A stretch of 64,000 nucleotides of DNA, from sequence record OZ035773.1, one strand, 5' to 3'. This document shows positions 3,009-28,512 of the stretch, piece after piece; the stretch's first letter is position 1, and each line of letters begins with the position of its first letter. Made by a program: the position numbers and the translations under genes. Source of the DNA: Justusliebigvirus VEcB. The notes under the pieces were generated by a model. That model worked only from the letters and a program-made list of their open reading frames with translations, was not told the origin of the DNA and ran no database searches.

Positions 3009-5783
3009 TTAGTTTACCAGTTTATTTATATCTGGTAAAAGATTTATTTCACCTAAGAAATCACCTTCACCTTCCTCTAGCCAACTCTCATATGCTTGTG
3101 CATGATTATAGTTACCATCAAAAGAATCTGCAACAAATTTTTCTACAGTTTTTCGAGATGTGCCAGCACCAAATACACCAAGTTTAATACCATTGATCGG
3201 TAAAGTGGTGCTTGTGGGTACTTTCTCTGTTGCAACACGGTTGATATCTATAATCTCCTGTACGGTTGTATTCCATTGTAAGCATTTAACACAACGGGTA
3301 TGCGCTACATACAGTAGGTTTCGCTCTGCCTCTTCTAGTCCTACCCATTCACCAGTCTTTTTATCATAATTGGAAGGAAAATCATTAGCAACAATAACCT
3401 GATCCCACTCCAAACCTTTAGACTTGTGTGCTGTAGTCAATGTGACTTTTGCTGTAGGAGAATTTCTATGCGTTCTAAGGGTATGTGCTATAGTGTTTGC
3501 CTTACCAGAAACTACAATGTTTAACAAGCGTTTAGCATCTGGATCAGCCTCTGCACACTCAACAAATTCATCCCAGTCTGCGTAAGGTAATACAGTTTCA
3601 TGTTTTACTTTCTCAATATCTCCTCTCCGAAGAGCATTAACACTATCTACCATAGAGATAAAATCCCTGGTATCTACGTTAATAATAATTTCTTCCCCAT
3701 CTGCAATACGATCCATTGCCTCCATAAGCAAGGTTAAATTCTTGCGAAAGATGATAGTGTAAGGTTTTGTATAGTCTACAACATCTGATTTGTAGCTACC
3801 TACTACAGTATCAAAGCCTTTACCAACCAAAGGATGACGCAAAGGTTCTTTATCGCTTAAAATCATATTGGCAATGTTTGCCACTTTGGGGCCAAAACGG
3901 AAGCAAGCAGTTAATGGAAGTTCTGCCCCATACTTAGCTGTTTCAATCATCATATTAGAGCTACCTCTAAATTGATAAATGCAGTTGTGGCTAAGAATTT
4001 CATTGCCAAAGAAGTTAGCAGTATCCTCTACTTCAATATCATAATAGATACCCTCACTATCTACAATGTCCACAATCTCTTCTGCCGTTACAGTATCACC
4101 ATCTTTTACCAACACAGACATGCCTTTAAACAAACCCGCTGCCGGAATTAAGTTATATTTGGCACTGTTCACAGAGGACATGCATTCTTTTAAAGATGCA
4201 AACGGAACTATTTCAAGGATCTTTTGTGCAAAACTCAATGCTTCACGATAAGAATTGAAATATTTACGTACACGGTAACGACCTTCCAATTTAGCAGCAC
4301 TTACGCTTACACCTGCTTTAATCAGTGAAGAATAGATCGGCATTTCACTTTCTGTCCACTCAAAACTAACTTGTGTTCCTTTACAACCTTGCGCTCGCAA
4401 AGTCACTGTTAGCATTTTTCTTTCATCTACTGCACAATTGATGCTGTGCCAGTGTGGATAAGCAAAATGATAATCTTTATCCTCTAAAAGTTTAAAACCA
4501 TTTTGTCCGAATTGTTCAAAGATGTTATTGATCTTTTCTTGATTAATGCCGCGTGAACTTGCTTCAAATACACAAGTAGGAATGCCATATTGTAAACTGT
4601 AAGCCATTTCTTTTTCCATAGCAGCTTCACGGTTTTCAACAATATCCAACACCCATAATTTCTGTGCTTTTTCAGAACGTGTACGTTGCCCCAGTTTAGA
4701 AAAACCTTCTTTATCATCGAATTTGTTAGTGATCCCTACTCGGAAACCTAAATCTTTCCTCCACATTAGGTATACCACCATCTGATCATCTTTCAGAACA
4801 TAGGATGAAGCCCAAATACGATGGTTATGTGTCATATCTAAAGTTTTACCTGTGGCAGTAATAATATTCCTACCTTTTGTACGTGTAGATAAAGTCTTAT
4901 TTGTTACTTTTCTAAATGTAATTTTACCATTAGAATAAGACTCTACCTTATCACCGATTTGTAGGTCTTTCATTGTAACCTGACCATTCTCGGTATTAAG
5001 TACCGTGTTTTCCGACACACATTGGAATTCGTCACCCACTACCACAATTTGTTTTGCAGATTTAGCATTTCGCAGAATAGACAAGAATGCAGGGTTAACA
5101 TCCTGGAATTCATCACCAAAAATAATATCATAACCAAGATCAGCACCAGACAATTCAAACAATTTTACATAGGTGTCATGCGTCATCAAAGTATCTGTAT
5201 TAGGATCAATGCGCTCTCGCCACAATTGTTTTGCATACTTAACTACTTCTGTAATTAGTTTGTGTTCGTTAATACCTTTTCTTTTAATATCTGCAAGATG
5301 TACACTAGGAAAATGTTTACGGCTGATAAAAGGATCATCCGAAAATTCAAACTTACCTACGGTTTGCTTGATCATTAAACCGATCATAGCACGAGTTAAA
5401 AGTGTTTTCCCTCGTTTATCAATAAGATTATTAATCTTAAATTTCTTTGCTATCTCGCTACCTGTACCTGCAACGTTAACATACTGTCCTTCTGGTCGTG
5501 ACAGTTTTGCACGTAAACGATGGTCCAGGAATTGATAGCAAATAGAATGCAATGTACGGCATTCTACATTTAGTGGCATCTTACGTCGTGCTTCTTCTGC
5601 CATGCTTTTATTGAAAGCTAAGTAAAGAATGCGATCTTCTGTACTGTTAGCCAGCAAATAAAGTGTTGACGTTTTGCCTGATCCAGATTTAGCTTGGATA
5701 GTTAAAAAGCGATGGTCTGGAAAAGCCTCCTTAATAGCTGTTTGCTCTTCTGTTGGAGTGAAGCTCAACTCTTTCTTAGCCAT
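3009..5783 (-). CDS. UvrD/PcrA-like SF1 DNA helicase, interrupted by an intein
   Basis: Walker A AKSGSGKTST, motif II GDEFQD, motif III GDEFQ|CIYQFRG split by in-frame insert; start placed at ATG 5783 (SD AAGAGAGG), track ORF extends 13 codons further. Confidence 0.8.
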   Translation of the reverse strand: MAKKELSFTPTEEQTAIKEAFPDHRFLTIQAKSGSGKTSTLYLLANSTEDRILYLAFNKSMAEEARRKMPLNVECRTLHSICYQFLDHRLRAKLSRPEGQYVNVAGTGSEIAKKFKINNLIDKRGKTLLTRAMIGLMIKQTVGKFEFSDDPFISRKHFPSVHLADIKRKGINEHKLITEVVKYAKQLWRERIDPNTDTLMTHDTYVKLFELSGADLGYDIIFGDEFQDVNPAFLSILRNAKSAKQIVVVGDEFQCVSENTVLNTENGQVTMKDLQIGDKVESYSNGKITFRKVTNKTLSTRTKGRNIITATGKTLDMTHNHRIWASSYVLKDDQMVVYLMWRKDLGFRVGITNKFDDKEGFSKLGQRTRSEKAQKLWVLDIVENREAAMEKEMAYSLQYGIPTCVFEASSRGINQEKINNIFEQFGQNGFKLLEDKDYHFAYPHWHSINCAVDERKMLTVTLRAQGCKGTQVSFEWTESEMPIYSSLIKAGVSVSAAKLEGRYRVRKYFNSYREALSFAQKILEIVPFASLKECMSSVNSAKYNLIPAAGLFKGMSVLVKDGDTVTAEEIVDIVDSEGIYYDIEVEDTANFFGNEILSHNCIYQFRGSSNMMIETAKYGAELPLTACFRFGPKVANIANMILSDKEPLRHPLVGKGFDTVVGSYKSDVVDYTKPYTIIFRKNLTLLMEAMDRIADGEEIIINVDTRDFISMVDSVNALRRGDIEKVKHETVLPYADWDEFVECAEADPDAKRLLNIVVSGKANTIAHTLRTHRNSPTAKVTLTTAHKSKGLEWDQVIVANDFPSNYDKKTGEWVGLEEAERNLLYVAHTRCVKCLQWNTTVQEIIDINRVATEKVPTSTTLPINGIKLGVFGAGTSRKTVEKFVADSFDGNYNHAQAYESWLEEGEGDFLGEINLLPDINKLVN
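3984..5021 (-). mobile_element. intein (346 aa) within helicase motif III
   Basis: Insert begins with Cys (CVSENTVL), has TxxH block (THNHRIW), ends ...SHN followed by Cys (+1); flanked by contiguous helicase motif III halves. Confidence 0.7.
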
Positions 5784-14808: not shown

Positions 14809-15981
14809 ATGACAGCACCAAAATCATGGGAACAATATAAAGAAGAATTAACACCCCTTGCTAAAAATCGCAATATTCAAATCCTGGGTTATGTTGGTGA
14901 ATGGAAAGGGAACAAGACTAAACTTAAGCTATCTTGCCCTAAACATGGAGAGTGGAACACCACGAACATTAATGATTTTAAGAAGGGACGTGGTTGTCCT
15001 ATCTGTTCTGGTAAGAAGCCGTTAACATGGGAAACAGAATTGCCGATCTTGGAAGAGATAGCACAGAAGAGGGGGTATCAGGTGTTAGGGTACGTGGGAG
15101 AATGGAAAGGGAATAAAACAAAACTTGATTTGTTGTGTCATTGTGGTAATAAATGGGATACTACAAGTATTAACAATTTTAAACGTGGTAGCGGTTGTCC
15201 ACAATGTAAGAGGGAGAGACAAACAATGTCCGACGATCAACATATTGCAGATTTCTTTTCTACAGGGGAATTTAAGGAAGGCACTATCTTCACCAATACA
15301 GGGAAACGTAACAAGCGTGATGCAGTATGGATGGTTGAGTGTCCTGTTTGCTCCCATGATGAATATGTTCAAGCAGGTGTTTGTGATGGTAAATTTTACT
15401 CTGCAGGACATAACCTTAAACAAGGGTATATTCCGTGTCGTTGTGGGAACTATCAGTATACAGAAGACCAGATCACCTATAGGGTAAAAAAGGAAGTAGA
15501 AGGGAAAGGGTATGTCTGGGTAGATTGGATTACCAAACCATCTTCTATAGGTAAGTTTAAATATCTTTGTCTTGTGCATGGGGAGCAGATAGGGAGTGCT
15601 CGTAATTTATTAAGCCTCGGTCAAGGTTGTCCACAGTGTGCTGGTCATAGTCAGCAGCAATTGTATGTTAATGTTGTTAAAGATAATGGTATTATAGTTG
15701 CTCTTAAGTTTGGTATATCTAAAGATAGCGATAGACGATTAAACGGTCAAAATAGCCGTAATCTGTTTTTTATGGAGCGTATTTGTTTATATGATTTTAG
15801 CACAGTGAAACAATGTAGGGCTGCTGAAAGAGCTATAAAGAAAAAATTAAAAACTGGTATTTTAACGGCAAGAGAGTTGAAAGATGGTTATACAGAAACA
15901 GTAAGTGTTTCTGATTTGGAAAATCTTCAAAAAATTATTACACAATATGGTGGCAAATTAGTATACAGTAAGGAGGTGTAA
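14809..15981 (+). CDS. zinc-ribbon repeat protein with C-terminal GIY-YIG-like (T5orf172-type) domain; putative nuclease
   Basis: Four repeats of C-x-x-(C/H)...G-x-G-C-P-x-C; C-terminus LYVNVV...KFGIS.D..RL...AERAIKKKL resembles T5orf172/GIY-YIG; SD AAGAGGAG. Confidence 0.5.
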   Translation: MTAPKSWEQYKEELTPLAKNRNIQILGYVGEWKGNKTKLKLSCPKHGEWNTTNINDFKKGRGCPICSGKKPLTWETELPILEEIAQKRGYQVLGYVGEWKGNKTKLDLLCHCGNKWDTTSINNFKRGSGCPQCKRERQTMSDDQHIADFFSTGEFKEGTIFTNTGKRNKRDAVWMVECPVCSHDEYVQAGVCDGKFYSAGHNLKQGYIPCRCGNYQYTEDQITYRVKKEVEGKGYVWVDWITKPSSIGKFKYLCLVHGEQIGSARNLLSLGQGCPQCAGHSQQQLYVNVVKDNGIIVALKFGISKDSDRRLNGQNSRNLFFMERICLYDFSTVKQCRAAERAIKKKLKTGILTARELKDGYTETVSVSDLENLQKIITQYGGKLVYSKEV

Positions 15982-16533
15982 ATGCGGATTACTGATAAGT
16001 ATGTGTTCTTCTTCTCGGCAAAAGATGAATTTAGCAACTGGTATCTATCATCTTTTATTGAACCTTTAGCTCCCAAGTATAATAATTCTATTACAAGTTC
16101 TGTTGAATTTACTTGTGTGGAACAATATATGATGTGGAGAAAAGCATGTTTGTTTTATGATTACAACATTGCATCTTCTATTTTAACCGGAGATCTAAGA
16201 TATACAGGAGAAAAAGAACAGGCATATTATAAGCGACTAGGTAGATTAGTTAAAGATTACGATGAAGCTACTTGGACTTCTTTACGGGAGAAGATTGTCA
16301 AGCGTGGTTTGTATCTTAAATACACACAAAATGAAGATCTCAAAAATAAACTTATAGCTTACGCAGATAAGGAGTTTGTAGAAGCAAGCCCTTATGATTC
16401 TATTTATGGTATCAAAATTGGGATGTGGGATCGGGACGTGGAAAATAAGGATTGTTGGAAAGGACAAAATCTTTTAGGAAAATGGCATACAGACCTTGCT
16501 GTTTATCTAAAAGCACAATCTGATATTTCCTGA
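15982..16533 (+). CDS. NADAR (YbiA-like, DUF1768) domain protein
   Basis: FFFSAKDEFSNWYLS...EQYMMWRKA...KRLGRLV...ASPYDSIYGIKIG...WKGQNLLGK match NADAR signature blocks; SD AGGAGGTG. Confidence 0.65.
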   Translation: MRITDKYVFFFSAKDEFSNWYLSSFIEPLAPKYNNSITSSVEFTCVEQYMMWRKACLFYDYNIASSILTGDLRYTGEKEQAYYKRLGRLVKDYDEATWTSLREKIVKRGLYLKYTQNEDLKNKLIAYADKEFVEASPYDSIYGIKIGMWDRDVENKDCWKGQNLLGKWHTDLAVYLKAQSDIS

Positions 16534-16752
16534 TATTTTGAAAATTTTTATTTTTATAAAAAGGGGTGTGGGTTTCATGTACGGAAATTCACCCTCTGCA
16601 CAGTATACCCAGAGTAAGTATTATTCTATACTCTGTTAATAAAGTATTTAATTTGTTTGTTGGACTATGGTATCTGATCTTTAAAAGGCATACTATCTCT
16701 TAACTACTACTTATAACAGAACAGTAAAATCATTTTTATAAAAAGTACAAAA

Positions 16753-16949
16753 TTATTTAAAGTTTTTACAGATTTTTGGGTACAAATTTTGAAAATGAAA
16801 AGTTCAAGTTTGGTCAAAATTATTTAAAGTTTTTGTACGTATTTCTATCCAGATTTTGAAAATGAAAACTTCAATTTTTTAAAAATTCCCCAGTTTATTT
16901 AAAGTTTTTTTGCCTTTTTCCGTAGAAAAATCAAAAATGAAAAGTTCAA
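16753..16949. repeat. three tandem ~67-75-bp direct repeats (each with TTATTTAAAGTTTTT and TTGAAAATGAAAAGTTCAA)
   Basis: Both sub-motifs recur three times at ~67- and ~75-bp spacing. Confidence 0.6.
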
Positions 16950-16972
16950 TTTCGTGTTTTTATAGGTGTGTT

Positions 16973-17084
16973 AATGAGAATCATTTTCGTTTGTAAATGA
17001 GAATCATTATCATTTAATTATGTAAGTGATAATCATTCTCAGTAAGAGAATGAGAATCATTAGCAAATGAGAATTTTTCTCATT
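16973..17084. promoter_or_regulatory. cluster of five Fur-box-like palindromes (AATGAGAATCATT variants)
   Basis: Sites at ~16973, 16996, 17027, 17049, 17066; closest match TGAGAATCATTATCA vs Fur 7-1-7 core TGATAATnATTATCA. Confidence 0.4.
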
Positions 17085-17346
17085 TAGAGAATAACGCGCA
17101 GGGGTGGTGTTTGTCTCGCGCTCCCGTGTCCCCTCGCCATACAATAAGAATAGCATAACCAACAACAAAAGCAAGCGATTATTTTTATCTTTACATTTCT
17201 TTACAAATTTATTTTAGACGAGCCACCGGCGATCAACCTTCCAACCAGTGCCCCCTGGTATGTTAGCCCCGCCTTTACGCCGTGGGGGTGGCGTTTCCTC
17301 TTCTGTATGTAAAACAGTATAAGCCCGATCCCTGGGCTTGTCAAGA

Positions 17347-17613
17347 TTATTTTTTGTTTTCTTGCCAGGATAGGACACCTAACCAAAAATACATGTCGCC
17401 CCGCGCCCCTGGCGGGATCTTGCTTTCCCCGCCGCCACTGCAAGCCCATAGATAACCATTAGCGAACGGATCAAAATGATCTATTTCTTCCACCTTATGA
17501 TCGCCCAGGTTGAGAACGGTTTCAACCTTTAAGCCCGTTGCGCTTGCTACCTGGTGCACCGTGCCGCCTTGCCAGCCTAATGAGTGCATGAGGTGTAGAG
17601 TAGGATTTGTCAT
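17347..17613 (-). CDS. hypothetical protein (88 aa) in GC-rich islet
   Basis: Track ORF; SD AAAGGGCGA; local GC content far above the rest of the window; coding status uncertain. Confidence 0.3.
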   Translation of the reverse strand: MTNPTLHLMHSLGWQGGTVHQVASATGLKVETVLNLGDHKVEEIDHFDPFANGYLWACSGGGESKIPPGARGDMYFWLGVLSWQENKK

Positions 17614-17724
17614 GGTATCGCCCTTTCTTTGATGTGCGCCCTGGTTGGCGCGGTAGAAAGATAATAGCCCTTTCCTTTATAGATAGCAAGCAAAAAAGAA
17701 ATGAAAAAAAGATTAAAAAAGGGG

Positions 17725-17753
17725 TTGACGTTCCTCACCTGGTAGCGTATTAT
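17725..17753 (+). promoter_or_regulatory. sigma70-like promoter
   Basis: TTGACG, 17 nt spacer, TATTAT; ~120-nt GC-rich leader before peptide ORF. Confidence 0.45.
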
Positions 17754-17880
17754 TCATCTTGTCGAGGGGGGCGAGGCACAACGACAATAAACAAAAGGAG
17801 GGCGCAATGTAGGACGGGCAAAGGTGAGGATCTCCACAATCCACCGTCACAATAACATTACTTATAAAAGGTTGATAACG

Positions 17881-17976
17881 ATGATCAAGAAAGAAAACAG
17901 CTTGACGGTTGGAACGATTAACGCTATCATTCTTGCCGTTCCATTTTGGGTTGTAGTTGCGGTTATTATTTTTTAA
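17881..17976 (+). CDS. 31-aa hydrophobic peptide
   Basis: Hand-translated MIKKENSLTVGTINAIILAVPFWVVVAVIIF; single TM-like segment; weak SD; downstream of promoter 17725. Confidence 0.35.
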   Translation: MIKKENSLTVGTINAIILAVPFWVVVAVIIF

Positions 17977-17984
17977 AAATATTC

Positions 17985-18042
17985 TTGACAACGTTTTTTA
18001 ATCTGATAAGATGTATCACATAGGGCGGCAATAGTGCCGCTC
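17985..18042 (+). promoter_or_regulatory. promoter + 5' stem-loop cassette 1
   Basis: TTGACA, 16 nt spacer, TAAGAT; then GGGCGGC-aatagt-GCCGCTC hairpin, then SD. Confidence 0.6.
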
Positions 18043-18064
18043 ATAACAGAAGAGAGAAATAATC

Positions 18065-18340: not shown

Positions 18341-18400
18341 TTGACACTGAAAAATAATTTGGTAATATATACCACATAAGGCGGGAAATGGTTTCCCGCC
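18341..18400 (+). promoter_or_regulatory. promoter + 5' stem-loop cassette 2
   Basis: TTGACA ... TAATAT; hairpin GGCGGGAAA-tgg-TTTCCCGCC. Confidence 0.6.
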
Positions 18401-18425
18401 AGGCCATCAAAGAAAGGGTAATGCA

Positions 18426-26827: not shown

Positions 26828-26968
26828 ATGAACAACCATACCATGAAGATCATAAGGCGTTTACAGCGTGTTTTAGACCGTTTATTTTTAATTTCTTCAT
26901 GCAACTATAGGACAAAAACAGTCTTTTTCTTGTCTTTCCTCTTAAATGATAATCATTCTTATTTATAG
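26828..26968 (+). CDS. possible small ORF (46 aa) reading into a Fur-box-like site
   Basis: Hand-translated MNNHTMKIIRRLQRVLDRLFLISSCNYRTKTVFFLSFLLNDNHSYL; SD AAGGAG 3 nt upstream; speculative. Confidence 0.25.
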   Translation: MNNHTMKIIRRLQRVLDRLFLISSCNYRTKTVFFLSFLLNDNHSYL

Positions 26969-27015
26969 CTGATTATTTATGCAATAAACTGCATAATGCA
27001 ATAATGATAATCATT
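26945..27015. promoter_or_regulatory. two Fur-box-like palindromes (AATGATAATCATT)
   Basis: Sites at ~26945-26957 and ~27003-27015; second reads ATAATGATAATCATTCTTA vs Fur consensus GATAATGATAATCATTATC. Confidence 0.45.
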
Positions 27016-27385
27016 CTTAACTTAAGACCATCTAACTTATAAAATAATAAGTTATCTAACTAAATTAAAGCTAATTATCTTACTTTTATTTATAACATAC
27101 TGTTACTATCTTATTGATAACCTTATATTAAACAACAATAATCAATGTAAATCATTACTAAGCTAACTATAATCTATCTAACCATTAAAACTATAACTAT
27201 AATCTATCGAATTGTTGCACAAAGTAACTATTAAATTGTTAGTAACATTACTAAATAATTCACATCTTATCTATTTATGATCTAATCTTTACCTCCCTAT
27301 TTATTACCTAAATAACCATTTCATGTAGTAATCATTTCATACAATAACTATAACAAGAAATATAATTCGCAAGCGTATCATTAGC

Positions 27386-27539
27386 AGCCTATGCCGGACA
27401 CATAGGCGGCTAATAATAACGCAACTACACCCCCCCACATAATAACTATCGCCGATAGTTATTATTTGTGTTTATGTAGCTTGCAACAATTGCAAGCGCA
27501 ACAATATACATGGTATATTGTATTCCCTTACATTGTTGC
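27386..27539. repeat. cluster of four palindromes/hairpins
   Basis: GCCTATG-n7-CATAGGC (~27386-27406); 27-bp perfect palindrome ATAATAACTATCG-c-CGATAGTTATTAT (~27438-27464); GCTTGCAA-caa-TTGCAAGC (~27478-27496); CAATATAC-atg-GTATATTG nested in CGCAACAAT...ATTGTTGCG (~27496-27539). Confidence 0.55.
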
Positions 27540-27618
27540 GGTGCGTTATTATTAGCTAATGTTTAGAACATTGGCTATAATATAAGCTGCATATAATAAG
27601 CTATACAATAATAAACAT

Positions 27619-27654
27619 AATGAATAATGACACTGAAATGAATAATGACACTGA
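27619..27654. repeat. perfect tandem duplication of 18-bp unit AATGAATAATGACACTGA
   Basis: Two adjacent identical copies. Confidence 0.6.
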
Positions 27655-27794
27655 TGATCATAATGCGCCACCCTCCAGGGGCGCTATGTGAACACAAAGA
27701 AATCTTTCTTGTCAAGAAAAATATCATCATTATTGCGCAAAATTATTTACATCTGAATAGATGATTTTTCATACTATTGCCCCCATATAACTTA

Positions 27795-27853
27795 CTATTT
27801 GTTGCAATGTATTCCCCTATTTGTTGAGCATAGTTATAGCCTATTTGTTGAGC
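27795..27853. repeat. three iteron-like direct repeats CTATTTGTTG(AGC) at ~22-24-bp spacing
   Basis: Copies at ~27795, 27817, 27841 (about two helical turns apart). Confidence 0.55.
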
Positions 27854-27926
27854 CTACTTTCTTAAAAGCGCAATAAATCAGAATTATCTTGATTTTTAGG
27901 TAGTTTTATAGTATAGAAAATATGCA

Positions 27927-27942
27927 AATGATAATCATTATC
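27927..27942. promoter_or_regulatory. Fur-box-like palindrome, best match
   Basis: GCAAATGATAATCATTATC matches Fur consensus GATAATGATAATCATTATC at 17 of 19 positions; overlaps a possible promoter upstream of small ORF 28006. Confidence 0.45.
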
Positions 27943-28005
27943 AGCTATCTTCCACGGGTGGCACTATTTCACACCAGATCATTTCATTTGGCAAGGTGTA
28001 GATAG

Positions 28006-28110
28006 ATGTTTAGACTTGCCAAGTTATTGATTTACTTAGAATTTATCTGTTTTGTTGTAAGTAGAGCCTTTTTTGCTCAGAAAATAATCAAAAGTCTTAT
28101 AAGTCATTGA
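28006..28110 (+). CDS. possible 34-aa hydrophobic peptide flanked by Fur-box-like sites
   Basis: Hand-translated MFRLAKLLIYLEFICFVVSRAFFAQKIIKSLISH; SD AAGGTG 7 nt upstream; speculative. Confidence 0.3.
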   Translation: MFRLAKLLIYLEFICFVVSRAFFAQKIIKSLISH

Positions 28111-28140
28111 ATGATAATGCAAATGATAATTATTCTCATT
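28109..28140. promoter_or_regulatory. composite Fur-box-like site (overlapping GATAAT hexamers)
   Basis: GAATGATAATGCAAATGATAATTATTCTCATT. Confidence 0.4.
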
Positions 28141-28512
28141 GATATTTGAGGGGGACGGTCGGGAAAAATCGGGGGGCGCTGAAAATCGCGTTAAGCACCT
28201 CTCGCAAGCGAGCAGTATTTTGCGGCAAGTTATTGATATTATTGACTTTACGCTTATGAAAAGGGGGTGTGTCGAAATAAATCGGGTATACCGGAAAATT
28301 TTTGTGGCATAGATATTTATTTGTCTATATTATGTACAAAGGGGTGTGTTAAAAATATTAGGTATATATAGAATAATTGATAGGGAAATCCTATACTAAT
28401 TCCTCCATTAATGATGTTTCTATGTTGCTGTTCTTGTAATAGATGAAAAGACGCTGTATGATGTGTGGCATGAAACGTAATCCTACAACGTAATCTTATA
28501 AAGGAGTCTGAT

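Follow-up and report, generated by a model that had tools for sequence, protein, structure and literature searches.

Transcription into AT-rich DNA is a recurrent theme in the initiation of phage and plasmid replication. The primary origin of phage T7 consists of the tandem promoters phi1.1A/B and an AT-rich region, and oriF and oriG of phage T4, like the ColE1 origin with its RNA II, are primed or activated by transcription. A different kind of RNA is the put RNA of phage HK022, a cis-acting antiterminator. For phages of the rV5 and phi92 type, our survey of the literature found no origin, early-control circuit, small RNA (sRNA), or binding sites for the host regulators Fur and CpxR. Here we describe RNA1, a candidate RNA element, and the region around it in a 64,000-nucleotide stretch (hereafter the window) of Justusliebigvirus VEcB (sequence record OZ035773.1), a phi92-like myovirus of the Stephanstirmvirinae. 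RNA1 lies in a GC-rich patch, the islet, at positions 17100–17990. We show that phi92-like phages and their relatives conserve this patch as an early control region that is an integral part of their genomes, and alignments of these phages show that RNA1 is a new, previously unannotated putative RNA element supported by covariation. The best explanation overall, which we regard as probable though far from assured, is a conserved early control region that contains RNA1 and that may produce a leftward transcript gated by the host.

RNA1 and its predicted structure

RNA1 is predicted to be a conserved non-coding RNA or leader of ~100 nt on the minus strand (17208–17309), where our covariance model R1, built from 27 distinct sequences, scores 108 bits. 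It starts ~10 nt past the predicted transcription start of a strong sigma-70-type promoter, P1 (17316–17344, minus strand; TTGACA-17-TATACT, 11 of 12 matches), whose position is kept in nearly all aligned phages. The P1 spacer contains a GC-rich hairpin (17339–17321) that is also terminator-like for the gene upstream, which encodes a protein of 88 amino acids (aa) and is described below. Most aligned phages have a GC-rich hairpin of differing sequence in this spacer, and it is likely to be the terminator of the upstream small gene.

R1 has exactly one match in each of 51 loci (72–111 bits), and the RNA1-bearing phages belong to Stephanstirmvirinae and several genera of Vequintavirinae. No other nucleotide stretch of the locus is as conserved: in distant genera (CR9, PBES 02, Mydo, KB57, CB7 and 4MG) the segment corresponding to 17188–17313 alone still aligns, with 82–84% identity, and it is mostly unannotated in their records. 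IMG/VR, metagenomes and genomes were scanned with a gapped 25-base pattern, which replaced a too unspecific 14-base pattern. In IMG/VR and the metagenomes the pattern occurs in phage contigs of ~140–150 kb alone, and 185,579 bacterial and archaeal genomes yielded one match, on a 4-kb contig of a metagenome-assembled genome (MAG). In rV5, R1 found no match in positions 90–138 kb, the remaining 90 kb not having been searched.

RNAalifold folds RNA1 into an outer stem (labelled P1 like the promoter; CGGCG/CGCCG), a GGGG bulge with a 2-bp helix on either side, and a hairpin, P3, with a one-base bulge. An upstream CCCC tract pairs with the GGGG bulge in a predicted pseudoknot, the corresponding pairings in divergent phages being CCAA/UUGG and CCAG/CUGG. 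In the alignment of 51 sequences, 89.6% of cells are paired, against 20–50% when the partners are slid, and seven pairs change on both sides (1–4 with slid partners). The covariation score is 0.156, compared with at most 0.03 for slid partners, and was reached by none of 500 shuffles. Compensatory base-pair changes are found in independent lineages, including pairs 49–74 (AU in 34 sequences, GC in 17), 54–70 (AU 23, CG 9, GC 3) and 52–72 (CG 47, GC 4) as well as pair 26–41 of the pseudoknot (CG 40, AU 10). The covariation supports both the predicted hairpin and the predicted pseudoknot. The unpaired stretches GGCUA, AAGGU and AUCGCCGG are invariant across the two subfamilies.

An excess of G·U over A·C pairs (48 versus 2, with 38 of the 48 coming from a single pair) favours the minus strand as the one that is folded. 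The same pairs bear on a very improbable alternative, namely that the conserved hairpins act as DNA, for example as a signal for single-strand initiation or primosome assembly, or as a site of packaging or recognition. The hairpins do adjoin iteron-like repeats (see below), and covariation alone cannot separate RNA from single-stranded DNA, but 48 G·U-type pairs would be much weaker in DNA, and a conserved sigma-70 promoter is situated exactly upstream in nearly all aligned phages.

The earlier note on this DNA, made from the bare sequence, had considered a structured RNA possible in the islet. One with covariation support exists, although on the minus strand (17208–17309) and not in the long plus-strand leader that the note had in mind, 450 bp away; the fold of that leader (17754–17885) is no better than that of shuffled sequences (z = 0.21). 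Nor does the islet encode RNA rather than proteins, as had been thought possible, since RNA1 coexists with real protein genes. The Rfam scan that the note had recommended (Rfam 15) returned no family in the window at the gathering score and none in the islet, RNA1 itself included (17208–17309), at E values up to 10, and a search for tRNA and tmRNA found none in the islet.

Several identities for RNA1 were examined and rejected. Coding potential was dismissed because a Shine–Dalgarno (SD)-like tract is present without a start codon and indels break every frame; the hairpin lengths differ by non-multiples of 3, hence our description of RNA1 as non-coding. A mimic of a CRISPR repeat, suggested by CCCC...GGGG with UAAC after it, an arrangement also found in type I-E repeats, was judged unlikely by eye, since in some phages the stem has covaried to CCAA/UUGG. 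The SD-like tract deserves a comment of its own. It forms the 5′ end of RNA1 (ACAGAAGAGGAAA, 17295–17307, minus strand) and is nearly identical to the SD region of an early-gene cassette (acagaagagagaaa, 18044–18057, plus strand), with no start codon after it. Perhaps RNA1 took the place of the open reading frame (ORF) in an ancestral cassette, or else ribosomes may bind to the tract.

Another possibility is that RNA1 is a cis-acting leader, riboswitch-like or similar to HK022 put, which decides on read-through past downstream hairpins or roadblocks. A compact pseudoknot directly 3′ of an early promoter, ~10 nt from the predicted start, with invariant loop nucleotides and with potential roadblocks and hairpins downstream, would suit such a role. 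Against it, the ORF listing contains no conserved ORF downstream of RNA1 on the minus strand, leaving no gene to regulate; neither an evident expression platform nor a terminator was found, a scan for intrinsic terminators having detected no canonical one after RNA1 in the window; and no Rfam riboswitch was matched at E values up to 10. When R1 was run with filters off against the whole HK022 genome, the best hit (11.4 bits, E = 0.2) fell inside a coding region, and identity of RNA1 with the put RNA was rejected for want of any similarity in sequence or structure. We therefore hold a cis-acting leader to be unlikely.

The leftward unit from RNA1 to the AT-rich repeats

Past RNA1 on the minus strand, the first element is TGTAAAGAAATGTAAAGA, with an exact GTAAA-N5-GTAAA direct repeat (GTAAAGAAATGTAAA, 17190–17204) just upstream of a putative second promoter, P2. 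The consensus for phosphorylated CpxR (CpxR~P) is GTAAA(N)5GTAAA (PMC3158067). The element thus has, as a match of sequence, the form GTAAA(N)4–8GTAAA upstream of a promoter that is typical of CpxR boxes, and the exact repeat is present at the equivalent place in ~38 RNA1-bearing loci.

P2 (17147–17174, minus strand) was read from the alignments and would consist of a −35 element TTGCTT (17174–17169), a 16-nt spacer and a −10 element TATTCT (17152–17147), with a start near 17140. Its −35 element is weak here and better in relatives (TTGACC, TTGCAA), and the promoter scan, at the threshold used, did not pick up P2 in this phage. The P2 spacer of some clades contains a hairpin that could end RNA1. 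Justusliebigvirus and Phapecoctavirus share a 10-nt insertion, TAAAAATAAT (17178–17187), between the GTAAA-N5-GTAAA box and the −35 element, which amounts to one helical turn and so preserves the helix face. Downstream of P2 there is a conserved GC-rich segment, RNA2 (17090–17141, minus strand; 61.5% GC), which contains GAGACAAACACC and CCTGCnCGTnATTC and in which the closing stem alone is supported, weakly, by the alignment.

RNA2 is followed by five palindromes of the 7-1-7 type, TGAKAATnATTMTCA, in the interval 16970–17084 (at ~16973, 16996, 17025, 17049 and 17066; form AATGAGAATnATTCTCATT). They resemble the E. coli Fur box, the consensus of which is GATAATGATAATCATTATC (PMC3788343). Matches to the 19-mer with at most three mismatches number 7 in the window against 0.03 expected, and the 7-1-7 core, exact or within one base, is matched 8 times against 0.13 expected; over all scans for such boxes, the window gave 6–8 matches where chance would give 0.03–0.15. 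The core matches are confined to the array beside the islet and to 26945–28140, and a single 19-mer match, at 4463, lies outside both regions. Among the fetched loci, the exact core occurs in 45, of which those checked all bear RNA1, and in none of the other 122; some relatives have a perfect TGATAATnATTATCA core. A tblastn search with an E. coli Fur sequence found no phage-encoded Fur in the window, the rest of the genome not having been checked, and a host factor is therefore assumed.

Two further observations concern these palindromes. Four soil or rhizosphere contigs (L111, L134, L140 and L084) keep P1, RNA1, P2 and RNA2 and have other repeats in place of the Fur-like palindromes, e.g. ACTATCACG and GGTATCATTAG, which points to a bound factor that varies with the host. 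In the window itself, a second ORF-free AT-rich region of 1.6 kb (26910–28500, ~30% GC) has many short repeats and four more Fur-box-like sites (26947, 27005, 27929 and 28124). One of them, a near-perfect AAATGATAATCATTATCA at 27925, overlaps the promoter-like sequence TTGATT...TATAGA. The region could be another control region or an origin.

The leftward unit ends in three AT-rich, iteron-like direct repeats of 67–75 bp (16732–16952) with the shared core TTTTGAAAATGAAAAGTTCAA. The relatives CR9, Mydo, Kashira, pEa56 and W70 have 3–4 repeats with a related core, spaced by 52–84 bp (mostly 63–78), and KP13-16 has 2 copies. In CR9, Mydo and Kashira (L004, L005 and L009) each ~70-bp repeat includes two GATC (Dam) sites (TCTCGATCG...AGATCG); the repeats of the window have none. 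The order on the minus strand (RNA1, GTAAA box, P2, Fur-like boxes, repeats) is kept in every enterobacterial relative, and the synteny of the repeats, the Fur-like boxes, P2 with its box, and RNA1 with P1 persists even in phages that have a different small gene next to it. Predicted promoters directed into AT-rich DNA with at least three direct repeats, a layout expected of origins, are present.

Taken together, these elements lead us to a tentative mechanism, in which we place limited confidence, of a non-coding early transcript, controlled by host factors, that runs leftward into iteron-bearing DNA resembling an origin. P1 and P2 would produce the transcript, which would read into the iteron-bearing AT-rich region. 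The latter would most likely be a replication origin, or else some other DNA site activated or primed by transcription, and RNA1 would be the structured 5′ domain of the transcript, either an activator or pre-primer RNA or a module to which proteins bind. The host factor at P2 would be CpxR~P, and at the palindromes host Fur would be a roadblock or repressor; through these two regulators the unit would respond to envelope stress and to the iron status of the host.

A number of points weigh against this picture. The promoters, the transcript ends and all protein binding are deduced from sequence. By minimum free energy, shuffled sequences fold as well as RNA1 (z = 0.14) and as well as the whole P1 transcript (z = 0.90). 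The pseudoknot rests on few independent changes, with one sequence (L154) breaking the pairing, and the covariance-model alignment of RNA1 leans towards the structure used for building the model. The structure of RNA2 is weak (RNAalifold −0.04 kcal/mol, 6 pairs, mixed support). A single GTAAA-N5-GTAAA is expected 0.41 times per window by chance; one box is thus unsurprising, and its conservation alone is notable. The Fur-like boxes begin at ~+55 of P2 and do not take the classic promoter-overlapping position. Neither an initiator gene nor a mapped origin ties the repeats to replication. Finally, three relatives (L090, L151 and L153) keep P1 and RNA1 without P2, RNA2 and the boxes, which implies that RNA1 can work alone.

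The last point also favours a different account, possible although doubtful in our view, in which RNA1 is a stand-alone early sRNA made from P1 that acts in trans, either on a target RNA or, by serving as a sponge or decoy, on a protein of the host or the phage, the neighbouring boxes and repeats being separate features. RNA1 has a strong promoter of its own, its invariant unpaired nucleotides are shared by two subfamilies as in RNAs that bind proteins or ligands, and the hairpin in the P2 spacer of some clades could provide its end. On the other side, no canonical intrinsic terminator follows RNA1 in the window, and the adjacency of RNA1 to the repeat region is kept in all loci checked.

A conserved phage locus with small early genes

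The islet had attracted attention by its composition, put at 55–60% GC against a background of about 35%. It does hold the GC-richest stretch of the window, but these figures need correction: the GC content is 45.8% for 17100–17990 as a whole, 48.4% for 17100–17700 and 40.2% for 17700–17990, with 53–55% reached in the best 200–300-bp windows, and the mean of the 64-kb window is 37.1%. The 550-bp windows starting at 17091–17111 rank first of 6345 in GC (0.494–0.498 versus a mean of 0.371, standard deviation 0.029), and the left neighbour (16600–17089) has just 24.5% GC, which sharpens the contrast. We attribute the high GC content to RNA stems, hairpins and the 88-aa gene standing beside very AT-rich DNA.

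A deviant composition, with the top 550 bp ~4 standard deviations above the window mean, is what an acquired island would exhibit, and it speaks in favour of the earlier note's proposal that the islet is an insert of foreign composition, acquired horizontally and possibly from the host. Everything else points the other way. BLAST of the 611-bp core against 5,426 complete E. coli genomes and 72,556 plasmids gave no match, and the core is present in 236 phage records in the same syntenic position, always after the end of a block of rightward genes and before the first of the small early genes. The position is common to Stephanstirmvirinae and several Vequintavirinae genera, the islet is 96–99% identical in phi92-like relatives, and 1.2 kb around it match over the full length, at 97–99%, the Escherichia phages inny, Paula, alia and phi92. 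The protein genes of the islet have homologues in these phages alone, and the RNA1 pattern found only the one MAG contig among the bacterial and archaeal genomes. A conserved place in related phage genomes together with protein homologues is precisely what the earlier note had said would count against acquisition. An insert of foreign or host origin is therefore effectively excluded by the missing host and plasmid matches and the conserved synteny, and we give the idea practically no credence. A GC spike in an AT-rich phage can thus mark structured RNA and hairpins, not foreign DNA.

The 88-aa ORF noticed in the islet is a conserved gene (17347–17613, minus strand), annotated in the phi92 record as the hypothetical protein Phi92_gp224 and belonging to phrog_19316. 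Its 21 homologue clusters all stem from contigs of this phage type. The protein is predicted to be all-helical (AlphaFold2 model, mean pLDDT 94). The motif LM..L.W.GGTVHQVA.ATGL at its N terminus is invariant and FWLGV at its C terminus is conserved; structure comparison found no fold relatives. The gene is preceded by a promoter-like site (17689–17661, minus strand, 9 of 12 matches) and a 5′ hairpin (17636–17651). In other genera the same slot is occupied by unrelated small genes, e.g. one for a DUF7170 protein in PVP-SE1, Mydo and 4MG.

A rightward early promoter-like site (17725–17753, plus strand; TTGACG-17-TATTAT, 10 of 12 matches) diverges from the promoter of the 88-aa gene, which bears out the divergent pair, plus-strand promoter included, that had been read from the islet. 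In the leader of this rightward early transcript sits a "start-stop" mini-ORF (17795–17812, plus strand), with a strong SD sequence, AAGGAGGG, followed after 4 nt by ATG and directly by TAG. The short hydrophobic plus-strand ORF of the earlier note (31 aa; 17881–17976) is conserved as a peptide with a single predicted helix. By tblastn, identity is 77–100% in close relatives and 55–58%, with conservative substitutions, in three more distant contigs (L107, L144 and L160); the latter values are the reason why we consider it probably a real small membrane protein.

Both genes are part of promoter-plus-5′-hairpin cassettes typical of most early genes here. Such a cassette precedes each small early gene (17985–18064, 18341–18425 and onward; also L083 and other loci) and consists of TTGACA-16/17-TAnnAT, a start at CACATA, a GC-rich 5′ hairpin and a purine-rich SD sequence, with >10 copies in some related loci. 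At the 3′ end of the 31-aa ORF (window ~17950–17975), phi92 (L001 ~4051–4379) has an insertion of ~300 bp with gp225 (93 aa), and in Phapecoctavirus contigs the 31-aa gene is found at a different distance from RNA1. Both observations indicate that the small early genes shuffle as cassettes.

Existing annotation of the locus is sparse. The alia record has two repeat_regions left of the 88-aa ORF, and nothing further is annotated between the gene at 15982–16533 and the rightward small early genes. The product of that plus-strand gene, the immediate left neighbour of the non-coding region, has a NADAR domain (Pfam PF08719, E = 3e-36). NADAR proteins are a family of ADP-ribose-removing enzymes, and the gene product is a possible counter-defence candidate. 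Upstream of it, 14809–15981 (plus strand) encodes a 390-aa protein with several zinc-ribbon-like units, "GEWKGNKTKL...CP.C".

Significance and comparison with known systems

Both the RNA family and the conserved sites that resemble those of host regulators are new, and RNA1 is a candidate for a new Rfam family. At its most far-reaching, the preferred reading of a host-gated control region would mean that phi92-like, PVP-SE1-like and CR9-like phages possess a new pseudoknotted RNA class heading an origin transcript that is gated by recruited CpxR and Fur, a notion we find rather unlikely as a whole. Such a class could be a riboswitch, a ribozyme, or an RNA that binds polymerase or the replisome. 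If this were true, a lytic phage would time its replication by the envelope and iron status of the host, and its many Fur boxes could titrate Fur and so derepress host iron uptake. RNA1 and the regulator-like sites in any case yield hypotheses on how virulent phages read host physiology, in a group that includes candidates for phage therapy and biocontrol (phi92, PVP-SE1, CR phages and Phapecoctavirus).

Mobile promoter-stem-loop cassettes are known from T4-type phages, and the early-gene cassettes described here resemble them. A pseudo-ToxI RNA has been described from phage PhiTE (PMC3475682). Like it, RNA1 is a non-coding RNA element of this phage group, and PhiTE carries RNA1 too (L136). 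RNA1 differs in adjoining homologues of phiTE_078/079 and in having neither repeat structure nor sequence similarity to pseudo-ToxI, and identity of the two is excluded by their different genome loci. The put RNA of HK022 is similar in being a structured RNA of ~70–100 nt immediately 3′ of an early promoter, but there are no downstream terminators or genes to be read through here.

As for the putative regulator sites, the GTAAA box is an exact match to the CpxR~P box upstream of a promoter with a weak −35 element, as expected of an activator site, although an UP-like element or the binding site of a phage protein is just as conceivable. The palindromes match the E. coli Fur 19-mer at up to three mismatches and its 7-1-7 core exactly or within one base; they differ in that they are found on a virulent phage, downstream of a predicted promoter and not over it, and in that their commonest half-site is TGAGAAT, not TGATAAT.

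In the direct repeats, 3–4 per locus beside AT-rich DNA and arrays of palindromic sites, the region recalls iteron origins such as lambda ori, P1 oriR and those of iteron plasmids, as it does in the paired GATC sites per repeat of several relatives. The period of the repeats is ~63–78 bp, compared with ~20 bp in iteron origins, and the palindromes resemble host Fur boxes, not sites of a phage initiator. With the origins of T7, T4 and ColE1 the locus shares two tandem promoters directed into an AT-rich, repeat-bearing non-coding region and, with ColE1 RNA II in particular, a structured 5′ part of the transcript. The locus is unrelated to these origins in sequence, its promoters are of the host sigma-70 type, and RNA1 is far more conserved than origin transcripts usually are.

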